NCBI GenBank assembly: GCA_030826005.1
Contig: JAPJOW010000077.1
Location: 1-17,523, forward strand
Direction of reading: 5' to 3'
DNA from: Aliterella sp. RAGGC_92
Lineage (GTDB): Bacteria > Cyanobacteriota > Cyanobacteriia > Cyanobacteriales > Chroococcidiopsidaceae
Length of the DNA: 17,523 bases
The translations under genes were made by a program, and so were the position numbers. Position 1 is the stretch's first letter, and each line of letters opens with the position of its first letter. Below are positions 2 to 17,285 of the stretch, piece after piece. The notes under the pieces are model-generated. The model was not told the DNA's origin. It did not search any database and saw nothing but the letters and a program-made list of their open reading frames with translations.

Positions 2-253
2 CAAGGGAAGATTCAACCCCAAGATATTGATGAATCCTTGTTTTCAAGTCACCTTTACACGGCAGGAAGAAGCGATCCAGATTTAGTAATTCGTACCAGT
101 GGGGAAATGCGGATTAGTAATTTTTTATTGTGGCAAATGGCTTACTCGGAAATTTATGTCACAGATACTTTGTGGCCCGATTTTGACCGCGTGGAGTTTC
201 ACAAGGCTTTGGTTAATTATCAAGGGCGCGATCGCCGTTTTGGTAAAGTTTAA
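2..253 (+). CDS. uppS: Undecaprenyl-diphosphate synthase (cis-prenyltransferase), C-terminal portion. The gene starts upstream of the window.
   Basis: The open frame runs from window position 2 to a TAA stop at 251-253. The translation ...[73 protein letters not shown] matches the highly conserved UPPS C-terminal block (RTSGE.R.SNFLLWQ.AY.E..F....WPDF). The M at 38 in the ORF track is a TTG inside the longer frame. One HIP1 site lies at 227-234. Confidence 0.85.
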
Positions 254-299
254 ATCAGATTAGTGAATTGTTCGATTGCGCTATAGCTAACAATGTTTT

Positions 300-608
300 T
301 CAAACCTTTATGATGTATTTTATAACAAATTTCAAAAAGGCAGTAAATAGTGGTGCAAATATAATCCAAAAGATTCTGTAATAAAGTTGTTTCATTAATG
401 TATTATTACTTTTCTCATGTTCTTCTATTGCTTTTCTGTCACCTCGTGTGATAGAAAATCTTGGATGTCCTTCAAACTTATCAATTTTTTCGTCTATAAA
501 TCTTTCATTTTGAACTCCTAAAAACGATCCAGTCATAAAAACCGCTACTAGCAATACAAAAAGTTTCTGCAAACTCTCAACTGATACTTCGTTATTTATT
601 CCTAACAT
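300..608 (-). CDS. Hypothetical small membrane protein (102 aa, two predicted transmembrane helices), downstream partner of the 223-aa ORF
   Basis: ATG start at 606-608 (minus strand) and TAA stop. There are two hydrophobic stretches, LFVLLVAVFMTGSFLGV near the N-terminus and YYRIFWIIFAPLFTAFLKFVIKYII at the C-terminus. They are separated by a charged loop of about 40 aa (DEKIDKFEGHPRFSITRGDRKAIEEHEK). The region is strongly AT-rich and has no HIP1 sites. No family recognised. Confidence 0.5.
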   Translation of the reverse strand: MLGINNEVSVESLQKLFVLLVAVFMTGSFLGVQNERFIDEKIDKFEGHPRFSITRGDRKAIEEHEKSNNTLMKQLYYRIFWIIFAPLFTAFLKFVIKYIIKV

Positions 609-643
609 AGGTAATAAGTAATTGGAAAATAAGCAGGTAATTA

Positions 644-1315
644 TTAAGAGGACAACGGGTGATGTATAACGAGCGATCTCACTGAGAAGTTTCCCTTGTT
701 TCCTAAAAATTTTTGAATAGGATCAGTTTCAAGACAATTTTTTAGACCTTCGTGCCAATTACTTACAATATTCAGTAATTCACCAGCAATAATACTATTA
801 ATAAAATCAACTTTACAAACACTGGATGCTTGGGCTTCTATTAATTCGGATATGTCATCGCTCGTTAACATTAGTTGAAATACATCTTTGGGTAAAATAT
901 CACTCCCAACTCTTAATTTCATCGAATGCCTTTGAGGGAGCTTATAGTGAGGTAATTTAATTAAAATATCCCAATTGATACTAACTGTTTTAATTTTCTC
1001 ATTTACAGTGTCCCAATTCTCCCTTTCAAACTCAGCCCAAGTAGAATAATCTTTGATCTTTTTGTTTGATAAGATAAAATTAATTGATGTAATTGCTGCA
1101 TCTACTGTATGGTTTCTAAGTTTTTCGGCTATTTGTTCATTAATAGCTCTAATATCTGCCAATTCCAAAATTTTTCTATCTGGCAGTAAACGAATTTCAG
1201 TGTCGGGCTTTGCATTAAGTGTGTAGAAAAAAGACTTAACTTCCTCAAGAGGTATGAGTGCCTCGGATTGCTGTGGAATAATATTGGAATTTACAGATTC
1301 TTCAAAATTGTTCAT
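644..1315 (-). CDS. Hypothetical soluble protein (223 aa) of unrecognised family, first gene of a two-gene minus-strand module
   Basis: ATG at 1313-1315 (minus) and TAA at 644-646. The long ORF lies in an AT-rich, HIP1-free segment. There is no hydrophobic segment. A C-terminal RSLVIH string fits an Rx4H pattern. It is followed 35 nt downstream, in a different frame, by the 2-TM ORF. A TTATAAT -10-like element lies about 32 nt upstream. Confidence 0.55.
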   Translation of the reverse strand: MNNFEESVNSNIIPQQSEALIPLEEVKSFFYTLNAKPDTEIRLLPDRKILELADIRAINEQIAEKLRNHTVDAAITSINFILSNKKIKDYSTWAEFERENWDTVNEKIKTVSINWDILIKLPHYKLPQRHSMKLRVGSDILPKDVFQLMLTSDDISELIEAQASSVCKVDFINSIIAGELLNIVSNWHEGLKNCLETDPIQKFLGNKGNFSVRSLVIHHPLSS

Positions 1316-1346
1316 TCTTAGTAAACCGTTTACAGCGAAAATATAA

Positions 1347-1352
1347 ATTATA
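1347..1352 (-). promoter_or_regulatory. Candidate -10 box (TATAAT on the minus strand) upstream of the 223-aa ORF
   Basis: The plus strand reads attata at 1347-1352, which is TATAAT on the minus strand. It lies about 32 nt upstream of the ATG at 1315. No strong -35 or Shine-Dalgarno sequence was seen. Confidence 0.25.
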
Positions 1353-1411
1353 ACTTTAAGTTCTTGAATTAGCCTTTTGTAAGGCTATGATATAAGCCAT
1401 TAAATCAAAGT

Positions 1412-1427
1412 TACGCCTTCGTAACAT
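1412..1427 (-). terminator. Candidate intrinsic terminator hairpin downstream of the GNAT toxin gene
   Basis: gttacgccttcgtaac forms a 6-bp stem (gttacg/cgtaac) with a 4-nt loop. On the minus-strand transcript it is followed by UUUGAUUU. It lies about 140 nt past the toxin stop. Confidence 0.25.
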
Positions 1428-1566
1428 TCACAGATTGAATTAAATTTGCACTGTCCAATCAATAATTATTAAGGGGCTTGACTAAATTGCTAATCAATCA
1501 CCTTCAAGAATATCTTTGCCAAAATGTCTAATACAGCGAAGATTATAGGTAGTAAGGTAATATCGA

Positions 1567-2085
1567 CTAAATGTCAAGAGTTCTAAAAAGGTCTACCACA
1601 GATTTCATAGGTAAATAGAGCTTCAGAGGAGCTTGTTTAAATTGTTGAAACCCGTACTTTAAATAAAAACTCAACGCATTTTCATCTAATGCTTCTGCTA
1701 TCACTGCACAAGATGCAACTTGCGCGGATACATCTAGCGATTTTTTCAGAGCATCTATTAAAAGTAATTCGCCAAATCCATTACCTTTTTGTCTGTTATC
1801 AACAGCAAGGCGACCTAATAATATAGCTGGTAATAATGGGTAACGAGGTAAGCGCTTTGCCCAAGCCTCATCCAAATCTTTGATTTCAACAGTGTATGAA
1901 CAGAGTGTATAGTAAGCTAAAACATTAACATCAGGTTCGTTAATTAAGACAAATACAGTAGAGACTCGTCTCTTGAGATCCTGAGATGCTTGATTTTGGA
2001 TGTAATTGTTTAAACTGTCTTTTCCACAGTAAAAGCCCGAACGGATATGCTTACGACTCTCAAAGGGAATGATTTTGAGAACCAT
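1567..2085 (-). CDS. GNAT-family N-acetyltransferase toxin of a type II toxin-antitoxin pair (TacT/AtaT/KacT-like)
   Basis: 172 aa. The translation MVLKIIPFESRKHIRSGFYCGKDSLNNYIQNQASQDLKRRVSTVFVL... has a GNAT core with an acetyl-CoA binding stretch (RQKGNGFGELLLIDALKKS). The ATG overlaps the stop of the upstream DUF1778 gene (TAATG, 1-nt overlap). This size and arrangement are canonical for GNAT/DUF1778 TA modules. Confidence 0.8.
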   Translation of the reverse strand: MVLKIIPFESRKHIRSGFYCGKDSLNNYIQNQASQDLKRRVSTVFVLINEPDVNVLAYYTLCSYTVEIKDLDEAWAKRLPRYPLLPAILLGRLAVDNRQKGNGFGELLLIDALKKSLDVSAQVASCAVIAEALDENALSFYLKYGFQQFKQAPLKLYLPMKSVVDLFRTLDI

Positions 2086-2363
2086 TAAATTGCAATTACT
2101 TTTCTATATCGTAAAGCAGCCGTTTTCAGCGCGTCGTTAGGCTGTGGAGGATTAAGTAATGCATCAGCAAAAGTAACGCTGTCTTCAATACTAAGCTTAA
2201 GGGTTAGATGTTGCTCAATGACTCTTTTTGCTTCTGCTTGAGAACTTGCAGCAACAAAATCTGTCAGAGTCCGACCTTCTAAATCTGCGGCTTTCTGCAA
2301 AAGAGCTTTAGTTTCTGGACTGACACGCGCTTCTAGTCGTGCCATTGATTTTGAATCAGTCAT
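2085..2363 (-). CDS. DUF1778-family (TacA-like, ribbon-helix-helix type) antitoxin
   Basis: 92 aa. The translation MTDSKSMARLEARVSPETKALLQKAADLEGRTLTDFVAASSQAEAKRVIEQHLTLKLSIEDSVTFADALLNPPQPNDALKTAALRYRK matches the conserved DUF1778 pattern (RLE.RVSPE.KAL...AA.L.G.S..DFV.....EA...I......L.LS.EDS..F..ALLNPP.PN.AL..AA.RY). It is translationally coupled to the GNAT gene. Confidence 0.8.
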   Translation of the reverse strand: MTDSKSMARLEARVSPETKALLQKAADLEGRTLTDFVAASSQAEAKRVIEQHLTLKLSIEDSVTFADALLNPPQPNDALKTAALRYRKVIAI

Positions 2364-2391
2364 AGTAATAAAATTCAGCTTCTAATCTAAT

Positions 2392-2412
2392 ATTATACGG
2401 CAAATTGCCGTA
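2392..2412 (-). promoter_or_regulatory. TA operon promoter with operator palindrome: a -10 TATAAT overlapped by a 17-nt near-perfect inverted repeat
   Basis: The minus strand reads ...ttttacTGTACGGCAATTTGCCGTATAATatt... about 33 nt upstream of the antitoxin ATG. tacggcaaattgccgta (2396-2412) is an 8-bp/8-bp inverted repeat. TATAAT (2392-2397 on the minus strand) sits at its edge. TTTTAC lies 17 nt upstream as a weak -35. Confidence 0.45.
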
Positions 2413-2440
2413 CAGTAAAACCAATACATAAACTAATCTC

Positions 2441-7637: not shown

Positions 7638-8261
7638 TTACCAACGGCGTTGATCCGCAGGATCGCCGTAGGGATCTTCACTGGCTGGGCGCACGTCACC
7701 AGGATCGCCATAGGGGTCTTCACTAGCGGGGCGTACGTTGCCGTACTGTCCTCTACTCCCACCACCTCTATCCATTAGTTTCTTAGCCGCTATAGCCGCA
7801 ATTCCAGCCATCGCGCCTTTTGCTAAGGGGTTGCTAAATATATTCCCTTGACTATTGCCCCCAAGCATTCCCGCCGCGCCACCTAACAATTGACCGAGTA
7901 AATCGGGTTGCTGTTGGTGCATACGACTTGTTGTTTGGGCTAGATAGTTAGAATCTTGATAGCGATCGTCTTGACCATCGCCATCTAAATCGGGAAAATT
8001 GTAATTTTGCTGCCGCGATTGTTGTTGGAGGTACTGACCGAATTGCATCCGCTCTTGGGGTGACATCCGGCTAAAAGCTTCTTGGGCAGATTCTTGGTAG
8101 ACATCGGCGGGTAACTGTCTAGATACTTGCTGGTAGCGATTGGCTACTTCCTCATCAGAGTATCCTTCGTGAGGCGCACCCTGTTCGTAACGATTGACGA
8201 AACCTCGGTAATCTTGCTCGTTATTTTGACCGCCACCAAGTAAACTTTCTAAAAAACCCAT
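7638..8261 (-). CDS. Hypothetical low-complexity Q/G/D-rich protein (207 aa) with two C-terminal 14-aa tandem repeats
   Basis: ATG at 8259-8261 (minus). Composition is dominated by Q, G, D, Y and R. It contains DLDGDGQDD and a glycine-zipper-like GGAAGMLGG...GAMAGIAAIAAKKL segment. It ends ...VRPASEDPYGDPGDVRPASEDPYGDPADQRRW. HIP1 sites inside the gene argue it is native. No family recognised. Confidence 0.5.
   Translation of the reverse strand: MGFLESLLGGGQNNEQDYRGFVNRYEQGAPHEGYSDEEVANRYQQVSRQLPADVYQESAQEAFSRMSPQERMQFGQYLQQQSRQQNYNFPDLDGDGQDDRYQDSNYLAQTTSRMHQQQPDLLGQLLGGAAGMLGGNSQGNIFSNPLAKGAMAGIAAIAAKKLMDRGGGSRGQYGNVRPASEDPYGDPGDVRPASEDPYGDPADQRRW
7653..7736 (-). repeat. Two tandem 42-nt coding repeats encoding VRPASEDPYGDP(G/A)D
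   Basis: ccgcaggatcgccgtagggatcttcactggctgggcgcacgtc and accaggatcgccataggggtcttcactagcggggcgtacgtt are near-identical adjacent 42-mers on the plus strand. Confidence 0.6.
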
Positions 8262-8296
8262 TTTTAACTCCTATCGATTTGTGTTATTAAAATTTT

Positions 8297-8779
8297 TTAC
8301 AGTGCGGGGGCTGGCTGTAAGTCTGTAAGGTCGCGCCCTGTAGGACGATTGTTGTAACCTTGAAAATCTCGGTATCTTTGAGCTTCAGTTTCCGATACTT
8401 GGATTCCTTCCGCAGGTGGCGTTACCCAGTGGACTTGACGTTGAGCATCTCTGTAATAAACGCGCCCATTTTTGGAGAGATAGTATTGTCCTTCTGCTCC
8501 TTCAGCTTTCTTATTTTTATGCTGGTTGTAGAGATAATAAAGAGCCGCCGCACCCGCTAAAATTACTACTTTTTGCTTGTTTGATATTCCTTGGCGCGGC
8601 TGTTGGGCGCGATCGCTATTGTTATAACTTTGGTTTTCAATGCGCGTGTTGTCTGTGGGCGCAGCAGTATTTGTTCTACTACCGCAACCAGTGAAAATTG
8701 AGAGCGATAACACTGCACTAAGTACGATCGCAACTGGGCGTAAAAATTTTTTCTTTTCGACTAAATATTTTGTATTCAT
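8297..8779 (-). CDS. Hypothetical lipoprotein (160 aa)
   Basis: The signal peptide with a lipobox-like sequence is MNTKYLVEKKKFLRPVAIVLSAVLSLSIFTGCGS. The rest is polar and rich in N, Q and R, with aromatic residues (YYLYNQHK, GRVYYRDAQRQVHWVTPPAEG). ATG at 8777-8779. It lies 36 nt upstream of the 207-aa gene on the same strand, so an operon is likely. Confidence 0.5.
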   Translation of the reverse strand: MNTKYLVEKKKFLRPVAIVLSAVLSLSIFTGCGSRTNTAAPTDNTRIENQSYNNSDRAQQPRQGISNKQKVVILAGAAALYYLYNQHKNKKAEGAEGQYYLSKNGRVYYRDAQRQVHWVTPPAEGIQVSETEAQRYRDFQGYNNRPTGRDLTDLQPAPAL

Positions 8780-14105: not shown

Positions 14106-17100
14106 TTATTCGTCTTCAATCGCAGAGTCTCGATCTAGAATCAATAAGTCACGCAACCCGTTTGTATCTAATTCCGTCAACCACTGCTCTCCTGCGCCTA
14201 CTACTTGTTCGGCTAGTTCTTTTTTGCTTTCAATCATCGCGTTAATTTTTTCTTCCAAAGTGCCAGTACAAACAAATTTATGCACTAAAACATTGCGCTT
14301 TTGACCGATTCTAAATACGCGATCGGTAGCTTGATTTTCGACGGCAGGATTCCACCATCTATCGAAATGAAAAACATGATTTGCTCTTGTCAAATTCAAC
14401 CCTACACCCCCAGCTTTAAGAGACAAAATAAAGATTGGTGGTGCTTGCGGATCGTGTTGAAAACGATCTAACATTTCTTCTCTTTGTTGCTTGGTAGTGC
14501 TGCCATATAAAAACAATACTTCTCTATTAAAATGTTTTTCTAAATGGGTTTTAAGTAACTTTCCCCACTCGGCAAACTGAGTAAAAATTAAAGCGCGATC
14601 GCCTTCTGCGATAACTTCTTCTAACATTTCTTGCAAACGCTGCAATTTACCTGATTTTTTATCAAAGTCGCTAGGTAATATATTTGCTTTGGCTGCTTTT
14701 TCTCCTACCATAACTGGATGATTGCAGATTTGCTTTAGCTTTACTAACAACGCTAAAATCATCCCGCGACGTTGTACGCCTTCGGCAGATTCAATTTGGG
14801 CTAAAGACTCCTCAACTACTTGCTGATAAAGGCTTGCTTGGTCTAGAGAAAGTCCACAAAACACAGTCATTTCTTGCTTTTCGGGCAAATCTTGAATAAT
14901 TGTGCGATCGCTTTTCAATCGGCGGAGAATAAACGGCTGTACGAGCGATCGCAATGTGTTTAAAGAAGCGGCATCGCCATACTTTTCAATTGGCATCGCA
15001 AACCGCCGTTGAAAAAATTGTTTAGCGCCCAAATATCCCGGATTGAGAAAGTCTAAAATTGACCACAATTCCCCTAATCTATTTTCTACGGGCGTACCTG
15101 TTAAAGCAATTTTAAAATTAGCTTTTAATTGTCTTACAGCTTGGGATTGTTTCGCCTCTGGATTTTTGACATTTTGGGCTTCATCTAAAACAACTCCCTG
15201 CCAAGAAACACTTTCAAATGATTTAATATCTCGGTAAATCAACGCATAACTTGTAATCACAACTTCATGCTTTTGTACTTCTTTAACAAAAACCTCACCT
15301 TTAGAGCGTTTATCGCCGTGATGAATTGTTACTTTTAAGCTGGGTGCAAACTTTTTAACTTCTCGCTCCCAGTTTCCTAATACCGAAGTTGGACAAACTA
15401 CTAATGTCGGCTGTGTTAAAGCATTTTGTTCTTGGAGATGTAACAAAAAGGCGATTAATTGAGCCGTTTTACCCAAACCCATATCATCAGCTAAACACGC
15501 ACCCAAACCCCAACGCTCTAAAAATGCCAGCCAGCTAAAACCCCGTTGTTGATAAGGGCGCAACTCTCCTTTAAACTTGCTTGGTGTTGGTAAAACTGCG
15601 ATCGCACTATTATCTTGCAATGTCGTCATCAATTCTTGAAGTACCCCTGACGCTTCAAAGCTGACTACGGGCAATTTTTCAATTGCCATTGTATCCCCGG
15701 TACTGAGACGCAACGCATCTTCAAGGGATAATGTCAAGCTATTTTTGCGGGCGGCAAAAAAGTTTTGGGCGGTTTTAATGTCAGGCGGCTTCAGTTCTAC
15801 CCACTCGCCATTAATCTCTACAAGGGGACTGCCGAGGGCTACAAGGCGGTCAAACTCGCTTTTTGATATTGTTTGCCCGCCAATAGCTAATTCCCACTTT
15901 AAGGTCAGCAAACTGTGCAATCCCAAGCGTTGCTGTTGTTGGGGCGCAGCGTTGCTAATTTTTAAACCCAAACGATTCGCCCAACCGCCGCTACTACTAA
16001 GACTTGGCGGTAAAACTACCCCCAATCCGTTATCTTCAAACCGCCAAGCAATAGACTTAATAAACTCATAAGCTTGCAACGGAGTCAAAATACAGCTTTC
16101 AGGATAAGCAGATTCTAAACTAGGGGCAATGGGTTCGTACAATCTAGACGCTAAACCCAGCCCGCGCAAAAAAGTTTCTTGAGGGTTTTCTATCTCTCTA
16201 TTTTCATACACCCAACGCTCTACTGGATGCTGCCAAATATCCGCCGCTTTTATTAAAAATTCTGAGTTATCTATAGCTTGGAGAGCATACGCCAAAATCC
16301 ACTCATTACTATCTGCATTTGGAGGTATAAGCTGAAAACAGGTACGAAAACGATTTTGAGCCGCCGTCAACTGATACTGTAATGGTGCAATCCAAGCATT
16401 TAAAGACGATTCTAGACGCTCTAGCTGTCCTGGCTCGGATTTAACAATGTTATCGCTACGAGTTAAACTGTGCAGCCACTCTTTCCATAAAGGCGGTAGA
16501 GTAGGTAAATCGCTACTAACCACCGTTCTTACTTGAGCATCTATTGTCGTATTGAGAAAATCTTGAATTAGTTTTTGCGGCGCAATCGGTAAATTTATCG
16601 CGTTAAAAGTTTCCTGCTGATAGCACAAACAAGCTAAAGGCATAGTTTGGGTAAATTGTTCTAAGCGCCCCGAATCAATAGAACTATCTAACAAACTCTG
16701 CCACTTGGTTATTAAAGTATTATCTTCAAGTCTTTCTAAAGTAGGCAAAAACTTAGCTCTACTCATTACATCCCAACTCCACCGCGCAACTTGCGCCCAA
16801 AAACGCAAGTCTCCGCCCAAATAAGAATTTTCTTCAATCCCCAATGGTAGAGAGTTTAGGAGTTTCATTGCTCCAAGGGGGTTAAAGCAATATCCTTCAA
16901 CTTGCCAGGGATATAGTAAATAAGACTTGTTAGTTGCTAATTCTGTAGCAACCGAATGTACCGGATATAGTAAATTTTTATCAATATGCGTCGGCAAAGC
17001 GATCGCTTGATTATTTGGTAGTGGATGATTGCTATCATCTAGCTTTTGAGTGCCGATGCCTTTACGAGGGCGTTTTGCTACCGCCGGGGAAACGGAGAGT

Positions 17101-17285
17101 AAGGAAGCTATTTCGGCGTTTTGCAAAGCTATCCAAGCTGTCAATTCCTCTAGATTCATCGCTAAAGGGTGCTTGGGTAAAGCGGTCAAGTCTGACAACC
17201 CTACAGAGCTTCGCCAAGTTTCTCCCCAAATAAATAAGCAACTACCTTGCTTTTGCAGTAACCAACTACCGTGTAAAATTGCCAT
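14106..17285 (-). CDS. SNF2-family DEAD-like helicase (1059 aa) with a long N-terminal extension (bacterial SNF2-helicase-associated-type region)
   Basis: The SNF2_N motifs are LRPYQQRGFSWLAFLERWGLGACLADDMGLGKTAQ (motif I) and VVLDEAQNVKN (DEAQ box). Helicase_C motifs include LIFTQF and QATDRVFRIGQKRNVLVHKFV. About 560 aa precede motif I. ATG at 17283-17285. Many HIP1 sites lie inside. Confidence 0.85.
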   Translation of the reverse strand: MAILHGSWLLQKQGSCLFIWGETWRSSVGLSDLTALPKHPLAMNLEELTAWIALQNAEIASLLSVSPAVAKRPRKGIGTQKLDDSNHPLPNNQAIALPTHIDKNLLYPVHSVATELATNKSYLLYPWQVEGYCFNPLGAMKLLNSLPLGIEENSYLGGDLRFWAQVARWSWDVMSRAKFLPTLERLEDNTLITKWQSLLDSSIDSGRLEQFTQTMPLACLCYQQETFNAINLPIAPQKLIQDFLNTTIDAQVRTVVSSDLPTLPPLWKEWLHSLTRSDNIVKSEPGQLERLESSLNAWIAPLQYQLTAAQNRFRTCFQLIPPNADSNEWILAYALQAIDNSEFLIKAADIWQHPVERWVYENREIENPQETFLRGLGLASRLYEPIAPSLESAYPESCILTPLQAYEFIKSIAWRFEDNGLGVVLPPSLSSSGGWANRLGLKISNAAPQQQQRLGLHSLLTLKWELAIGGQTISKSEFDRLVALGSPLVEINGEWVELKPPDIKTAQNFFAARKNSLTLSLEDALRLSTGDTMAIEKLPVVSFEASGVLQELMTTLQDNSAIAVLPTPSKFKGELRPYQQRGFSWLAFLERWGLGACLADDMGLGKTAQLIAFLLHLQEQNALTQPTLVVCPTSVLGNWEREVKKFAPSLKVTIHHGDKRSKGEVFVKEVQKHEVVITSYALIYRDIKSFESVSWQGVVLDEAQNVKNPEAKQSQAVRQLKANFKIALTGTPVENRLGELWSILDFLNPGYLGAKQFFQRRFAMPIEKYGDAASLNTLRSLVQPFILRRLKSDRTIIQDLPEKQEMTVFCGLSLDQASLYQQVVEESLAQIESAEGVQRRGMILALLVKLKQICNHPVMVGEKAAKANILPSDFDKKSGKLQRLQEMLEEVIAEGDRALIFTQFAEWGKLLKTHLEKHFNREVLFLYGSTTKQQREEMLDRFQHDPQAPPIFILSLKAGGVGLNLTRANHVFHFDRWWNPAVENQATDRVFRIGQKRNVLVHKFVCTGTLEEKINAMIESKKELAEQVVGAGEQWLTELDTNGLRDLLILDRDSAIEDE

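Follow-up and report, generated by a model that had tools for sequence, protein, structure and literature searches.

The question raised by positions 300-1315 (minus strand) of the stretch of DNA analyzed here, 17,523 nt of contig JAPJOW010000077.1 from Aliterella sp. RAGGC_92 (hereafter, the window), is whether the two open reading frames (ORFs) found there are indeed two genes, as was proposed by a sequence-only reading that saw in them a two-gene, defense-like module. Our results indicate that these ORFs are fragments of a single gene that a 1-nt frameshift has interrupted. We consider it highly probable, overall, that the segment is a single gene for a 338-residue membrane-anchored protein, split by the deletion of one nucleotide, and most likely a recent pseudogene. 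As a locus this is an ordinary finding, namely a recent pseudogene in a small islet that also carries a toxin-antitoxin (TA) pair, and its main value is that of a correction, as the two-gene system is a frameshift artefact and the HEPN cue that accompanied it is out-of-frame sequence.

Several of the features that had drawn attention to the region are real. The ORF list confirms two ORFs of 223 and 102 aa (ORF1 and ORF2) on the same strand, 35 nt apart and in different frames [(1315-608) mod 3 = 2]; ORF1 lacks any hydrophobic segment, ORF2 contains two hydrophobic helices around a charged loop, and the general layout, in which a cytoplasmic domain is followed by membrane helices, is genuine. 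A search with ORF1 returned 119 proteins, nearly all of 335-342 aa, of which ORF1 covers only the first ~205 residues. All 118 other relatives found in this search are single polypeptides, the full-length ones being 324-368 aa long, with the N-terminal domain covered by ORF1. The C-termini of these homologues correspond to ORF2, as in protein P0002, which reads ...LPVLGINNELSIDSLQK...HPRFSITRGDKKAIEEH..., and to which ORF2 could be aligned by BLASTP over residues 238-339 with 69/102 identities (68%; E=6e-48).

The point at which the gene is broken could be located at both the protein and the DNA level. In a three-frame translation, no stop interrupts the -1 frame between a point shortly before the homology of ORF1 ends and the stop of ORF2; across this region the -1 frame translates as IFRKQGKLLSEIARYTSPVVLLIITCLFSNYLLPMLGINN..., and from position 710 it aligns without gaps to residues 204-336 of homologue P0012, from Nostoc sp. 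SerVER01. Once the frame is restored, the 338-aa protein can be aligned over its whole length with 49 full-length homologues (alignment A1), with no gap at the junction and with all the listed invariant residues kept. Likewise, a MAFFT alignment of the window gene with 12 homologous genes contains one single-base gap, which falls in the T-run at 709-705, where the window reads AAATTT-TTAGG and its relatives AAATTT[C/T]TTA...; read from this T-run, the -1 frame gives FRKQGKLLSEIARY..., which matches the F[KR]KQGxLLSEI of the homologues. In the sequence of events that we propose, a one-base deletion, most likely from T6 to T5 at 709-705, would have shifted the frame after codon 204; frame 0 would then continue through 19 missense codons to a stop, giving ORF1, and the remainder, open in the -1 frame, would be called by an ORF finder from an internal ATG, giving ORF2 (Table 1).

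These alignments bear directly on the model put forward in the sequence-only reading, a true two-gene module made of a soluble, HEPN-like sensor or enzyme and a separate small effector with two transmembrane (TM) helices. Both ORFs are open and lie on the same strand, and a soluble protein followed by a TM protein is a common layout in defense operons. However, no homologue is split at this point, the full-length relatives being single ORFs of ~320-350 aa that span both parts, and the two parts always co-occur in other genomes because they are one protein, never as separate genes. The ATG of ORF2 is an internal codon that is not conserved as a start (the homologues have V, I or L there), no Shine-Dalgarno-like sequence is present upstream of it, and the first TM helix is encoded by neither ORF product; what had been described as a two-TM protein of 102 aa makes up the C-terminal two-thirds of an anchor with three TM helices. 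The RSLVIH sequence that was thought to fit a HEPN-type motif occupies ORF1 residues 215-220, within the out-of-frame tail (205-223), and has no counterpart in any homologue, and we obtained no HEPN family match in Pfam and no SLATT or PADLOC match. A genuine pair of genes is, in our opinion, extremely unlikely. Because ORF2 lacks a conserved start and a Shine-Dalgarno-like sequence, and because neither product would carry the first TM helix, the window copy has most likely been inactivated recently and lost its function.

A methodological observation can be added here. A word-indexed protein search with ORF2 alone matched only ORF2 itself, even though relatives at 50-68% identity exist; this result was a false negative of the method, and points to a sensitivity gap for short ORFs. 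The lack of any homologue for a short ORF that lies beside a longer one should prompt a check for frameshifts.

Table 1. Coordinates of the disrupted gene, of its parts, and of the neighboring features in the window.
Feature	Position	Strand	Remarks
Disrupted gene, probable pseudogene	300..1315	-	Uncharacterised ~337-aa family; cytoplasmic alpha/beta domain and three TM helices
ORF1	1315..644	-	223 aa; residues 1-204 authentic N-terminal domain, 205-223 out-of-frame tail
ORF2	608..300	-	102 aa; TM2, cytoplasmic loop with conserved F-x-I-T-x-G-D, TM3
T5 run (A5 on + strand)	705..709	-	Likeliest site of the 1-nt deletion; homologues have TTT[C/T]TT
G GGA AAC heptamer, X XXY YYZ form in frame 0	689..695	-	Inside the zone in which both frames are open
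Out-of-frame tail GNKGNFSVRSLVIHHPLSS and stop codon	644..702	-	Contains the spurious RSLVIH; sequence found in no homologue
Coding sequence of first TM helix, TSPVVLLIITCLFSNYLLPML	603..665	-	Readable only in the -1 frame; spans the "35-nt spacer"
Upstream non-coding region	1316..1566	-	Terminator-like hairpin at 1425-1410, after the GNAT gene; TATAAT-like hexamer near 1351-1346
GNAT-type ORF, TacT-like toxin candidate	1567..2085	-	Acetyltransf_7, E=7e-5, below gathering score
TacA/DUF1778 antitoxin	2085..2363	-	PF08681, E=2.2e-27
uppS 3' end, convergent core gene	38..253	+	PF01255 on the full gene in L001
Accessory islet (TA pair and disrupted gene)	254..2417	.	~2.2 kb, AT-rich, between uppS and the DUF3143 gene

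A lesion in a short homopolymer of an otherwise intact gene could also be a sequencing or assembly error, in which case the true genome would hold an intact 338-aa gene. However, three further assemblies show this 223+102 split, namely QQTW01020079.1 (GCA_003429145.1) and the Logan assemblies SRR33995916 and SRR33995912, whose sequences are 98.6%, 99.7% and 99.3% identical to the window, respectively. As these three assemblies, obtained from different data sets, are not identical to the window but differ from it at 4-14 positions, they represent distinct strains or data sets, and the occurrence of the same split in all of them indicates that the frameshift is a real mutation. A 5-base run, furthermore, is not error-prone on most platforms, and a scan of the JGI metagenomes with a pattern that accepts either T5 or T6 matched only the frameshifted contig, so that the intact (T6) allele of this lineage was not found there. 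Error is hence a very unlikely explanation. Two of the sister strains also carry a W93G substitution in the WAEFER motif, at a tryptophan shared by about 89-90% or more of family members, which suggests that constraint on the protein is relaxed in these two strains. This substitution, the 1-nt gap relative to the 12 homologous genes, and the lesion shared with the three further assemblies all agree with the assignment of the window copy as a pseudogene.

Inactivation of this gene is seen in other lineages as well. Of 41 complete genomic copies, 37 are intact single ORFs and ~3-4 are broken, each at a different site: the copy of Nostoc sp. MG11 (L047:6001-7012) has at least three frameshifts, and in-frame stops are found at codon 299 of a second copy (L012, 6001-7008) and at codon 28 of a third (L024, 6001-7002). 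Two more proteins, P0030 and P0033, end early at other positions, even though they are encoded on long contigs. In this respect, the window gene resembles other frameshifted accessory pseudogenes that are seen as two ORFs, in that one longer protein is matched by adjacent ORFs in different frames, the reading frame is broken by an indel of a single base within a homopolymer, and other lineages carry independent lesions. It differs from them in that the parent family is itself uncharacterised and the broken allele is common to several diverged strains.

Some of our observations, however, weigh against the simple loss of a functional product. The window copy is otherwise pristine, with no further stop in ~330 codons and all invariant residues kept, so that either the lesion is recent or some leaky expression persists; indeed, some residual or recoded expression of this copy may occur. 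Also, a G GGA AAC heptamer lies in the zone that is open in both frames. Lastly, the gene is only 0.1-0.3% diverged between strains compared to 4-5% for the adjacent 3' end of uppS (window 300-1315 versus 1-253, each against L001-L003; Fisher p~1e-5), a difference which indicates that the islet, frameshift included, was recently exchanged or swept. We infer that the broken allele has spread by hitch-hiking with the addictive TA pair, but its spread could fit a functional split equally well, and the role that we discuss below for the family is drawn only from architecture and context.

Such observations would be accommodated if the frameshift were bypassed, that is, if a -1 ribosomal slip (at G GGA AAC or at the T-run) or transcriptional slippage yielded some full-length protein, in which case the frameshift would act as an expression throttle or a phase switch for a costly gene. 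In favor of such a mechanism are the X XXY YYZ-type heptamer in the very zone that is open in both frames, the intact remainder of the gene, and the sharing of the frameshifted allele by strains whose flanking uppS has diverged. We nonetheless consider it unlikely. No stimulatory structure could be identified, as the 83 nt from the T-run through the region downstream of the heptamer fold no better than shuffled sequences (z=-0.49), and the heptamer is explained by descent, since the -1 frame there encodes the ancestral Q-G-K-L. Efficient transcriptional slippage or phase variation, moreover, requires longer runs than 5 T or 3 G/A. None of the homologues relies on a frameshift, the intact genomic copies mentioned above being single ORFs, and the W93G substitution in two strains again suggests relaxed constraint. 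In spite of its heptamer, therefore, the gene does not behave like a programmed -1 frameshift gene of the dnaX or insertion sequence (IS) type, given its z value and unshifted homologues. A recent pseudogene remains our preferred interpretation of the window copy.

The family to which the disrupted gene belongs has a scattered distribution in cyanobacteria and Bacteroidota. When 1.84 billion representatives of clusters at 50% identity were scanned by HMMER with a profile of the restored protein, 923 clusters matched at E<=1e-3, of which 254 at E<=1e-30; among the representatives listed nearly all are single polypeptides of 320-350 aa that match positions ~1-335. In a scan of 185,579 species, one genome each, three peptide patterns confirmed the family in at least 43 species, a lower bound given the use of patterns, with 21 cyanobacteria, 20 Bacteroidota, and two metagenome-assembled genomes (MAGs) labelled Rhizobium and Patescibacteria. 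Searches of PLSDB plasmids, INPHARED phages and IMG/VR contigs retrieved no copy of the family. The G+C content (GC) of the gene is below that of its flanks in 47/47 loci (L004-L054; mean difference -9.2 points, with flank GC ranging from 31% to 57%), and cyanobacterial family copies contain no HIP1 sites, compared to 0.1-2.1 per kb in their flanks.

The restored protein has a cytoplasmic alpha/beta domain (~20-195) followed by hydrophobic TM segments at ~212-236, 246-270 and 309-335. An AlphaFold2 model built on alignment A1, with a mean predicted local distance difference test score (pLDDT) of 80.8 and a predicted template modelling score (pTM) of 0.66, places the alpha/beta domain at 23-190 and long helices at 199-237, 246-279 and 291-336. 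Topology was evaluated using family-averaged hydropathy and lysine plus arginine (K+R) counts. Mean K+R is higher ahead of TM1 (4.5) and in the TM2-TM3 loop (8.4) than in the TM1-TM2 loop (0.8) and at the C-terminus (0.2), a distribution that indicates an N-in topology in which both the N-domain and the 40-residue TM2-TM3 loop are cytoplasmic. Over 129 sequences that are 18-41% identical to the query, the positions conserved at 90% or more are D38, K65, F96, W115, P127, Q128, H130, D170, F171, E179, W187, T290, G292 and D293. The polar cluster in the N-domain, combined with the loop motif, suggests a putative ligand-binding or catalytic site contributed by both cytoplasmic parts.

We attempted to assign the family through libraries and structural comparison. 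The Pfam, PADLOC, NCBIfam and PHROGs libraries were scanned with both ORFs, 50 full-length members and 121 diverse representatives. As the sequence-only reading had anticipated, neither ORF belongs to a described family, with no match at a meaningful level in any of the four libraries, and Pfam and NCBIfam profile searches of the family likewise gave nothing meaningful. In PADLOC-DB v2 neither ORF had a match, and the 50 full-length members gave four marginal and inconsistent ones (best E=0.0018). Foldseek searches of PDB and BFVD returned nothing at E<=1e-3, and profile searches of PDB sequences returned only compositional TM matches and G-gamma at E~0.5. Candidates that emerged along the way were discarded. 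Library matches of the DUF996 type reflect TM composition only, and a match to FlbD is spurious, and probably explains the 'YlzI/FlbD' label used at JGI. Repeated weak Foldseek matches to YgiF, Pct1, LEF-4 and viral mRNA 5'-phosphatases are a point in common with the triphosphate-tunnel (CYTH/TTM) enzymes, but membership was rejected because the ExExK motif is not conserved (D38 is, E40 is not). With both CYTH/TTM proteins and the KA1, TBP-like and SAM-decarboxylase-like alpha+beta sandwiches, including the N-terminal repeat domain of RnlA, identity is 5-12% and the folds shared are generic. A PD-(D/E)xK nuclease was considered on account of the conserved 'PD38', and rejected as the position of the following D/E-x-K (46-48) is variable.

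A comparison with the TM effectors of known defense systems is also warranted. Like the CBASS 2TM/4TM effectors (Cap14/Cap15), the SLATT-domain proteins and the retron 2TM effectors, the family combines a soluble domain with few TM helices, and its gene is accessory, AT-rich, patchy in distribution, and sometimes located beside TA or defense genes. Unlike them, it comes without a cyclase, a reverse transcriptase or any other partner gene, gives no SLATT or PADLOC sequence match, and has three C-terminal TM helices with a conserved cytoplasmic loop; as mentioned, it is also not seen on phages, plasmids or IMG/VR contigs. None of the 50 members, in fact, had a Pfam match to such effectors at E<=0.1, and no neighbor recurs across 48 loci: no neighboring gene family is found in more than five of these, and the cases that were seen correspond to synteny among close relatives. 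The absence of a recurring neighbor indicates that the gene stands alone.

In cyanobacteria, the surroundings of the gene include VapBC, DUF433/DUF5615, HicB, AF2212-like, Mrr_N, TIR and AAA_15/21 ATPase genes. In several Nostoc spp. (L004, L010/L014), an intact gene borders the nif or hup (uptake hydrogenase) clusters, beside small TA-like genes, a position that is syntenic across five species. In Bacteroidota, the gene adjoins groEL and an HNH gene, or lies upstream of mfd. When the nearest neighbors (145 proteins from 39 loci) were compared to PADLOC, strong matches to AbiEii, PD-T4-6, Tmn, MkoA, PDC-S02 and AriA were obtained, as raw occurrences uncorrected for background frequency. The same neighbors include TIR_2, PIN and integrase domains, no partner stands out, and at some loci the surroundings consist exclusively of housekeeping genes.

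What the intact protein might do can be suggested with caution. A defense role is plausible. Our best guess, albeit one that is less likely than not, is that the intact family is a stand-alone protein of the conflict or defense type, whose cytoplasmic module would control or anchor an activity at the membrane; the N-domain, jointly with the TM2-TM3 loop, would serve in ligand binding or catalysis, and would act on or through the membrane. Stated more specifically, and slightly more doubtfully, the family might represent, in cyanobacteria and Bacteroidota, an undescribed conflict or anti-phage (abortive-infection-like) protein that stands alone, and in which the alpha/beta domain (D38, K65, Q128, H130, D170, E179) would work with the three-TM anchor and its loop (T290, G292, D293). 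If this were true, cost or toxicity would explain the recurrent inactivation of the gene, here and in at least three other lineages. Alternatively, the intact family could be an accessory membrane protein of some other kind. Lack of a Pfam, NCBIfam or PADLOC model, low GC, patchy distribution over two phyla and repeated inactivation are typical of conflict genes, and this profile makes the family a reasonable, low-cost candidate for a defense screen using an intact homologue. As the window copy is disrupted, cloning "the pair", as was initially suggested, would test a broken gene.

The disrupted gene resides in a small, horizontally acquired, accessory and AT-rich islet. The low GC noted by the sequence-only reading is evident, with values of 0.29-0.33 over ~150-1650 compared to 0.40-0.50 in most of the window, and so is the lack of HIP1: GCGATCGC occurs 25 times in the window (0.17 expected from shuffles) and is absent between 236 and 2881. 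The statement that HIP1 peppers every native gene was however too strong, as this HIP1-free interval takes in the native backbone gene for a DUF3143 protein (2441-2713). The HIP1-free stretch from 2441 to 2881 is in fact all native backbone, comprising the DUF3143 gene and the end of a DnaJ-domain gene, and the absence of HIP1 alone therefore does not delimit foreign DNA here.

Further indications on the origin of the islet come from related genomes. Backbone marker proteins share >90% identity with their counterparts in Synechocystis sp. PCC 7509, Chroococcus sp. CMT-3BRIN-NPC107 and Chlorogloea sp. CCALA 695. At the nucleotide level, the MAG of Chroococcus sp. CMT-3BRIN-NPC107, the nearest relative found, is syntenic with the window (~85%) from 8695 down to 2418, where the synteny stops; beyond the equivalent of 2418, just past DUF3143, this MAG carries unrelated genes. 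In PCC 7509, a 62-nt, 89%-identical relic of uppS lies directly downstream of DUF3143 (L058:8335-8396, corresponding to window 86-147), which hints at an earlier adjacency of DUF3143 and uppS, and at the insertion between them of ~254-2417, with the TA pair and the gene. No tRNA, Rfam element or flanking repeat was found at the edges of the islet.

The TA pair that adjoins the disrupted gene was recognized correctly at the outset. A DUF1778 antitoxin with a strong TacA1 domain match directly precedes a GNAT ORF, with the antitoxin stop and the GNAT start overlapping at 2085, and this arrangement is that of the TacA-TacT (DUF1778/GNAT) type II modules, although matches of the GNAT ORF to GNAT families (E=7e-5 to 0.03) are all below the Pfam gathering scores. 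The disrupted gene is a neighbor of the pair and not part of it, being separated from it by a terminator-like hairpin and 250 nt. Promoter-like matches in this non-coding interval did not exceed what is expected from shuffled sequences.

Elsewhere, the window contains ordinary genes, encoding a DnaJ-domain protein, a pentapeptide-repeat protein, an aldo-keto reductase, an alpha/beta hydrolase, AroE, an SPFH protein, an HxlR regulator, an HtrA-type protease, an NmrA-like protein and an SNF2 helicase. Pfam gives no match for two backbone ORFs on the minus strand (7638-8261 and 8297-8779, of 207 and 160 aa); the region that contains them (7638-8779) is ~90% identical at the nucleotide level to the Chroococcus MAG, and they are probably real conserved hypothetical genes. 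The SNF2-family helicase (14106-17285, minus strand) is a large protein of 1059 aa with a DUF3670 domain.

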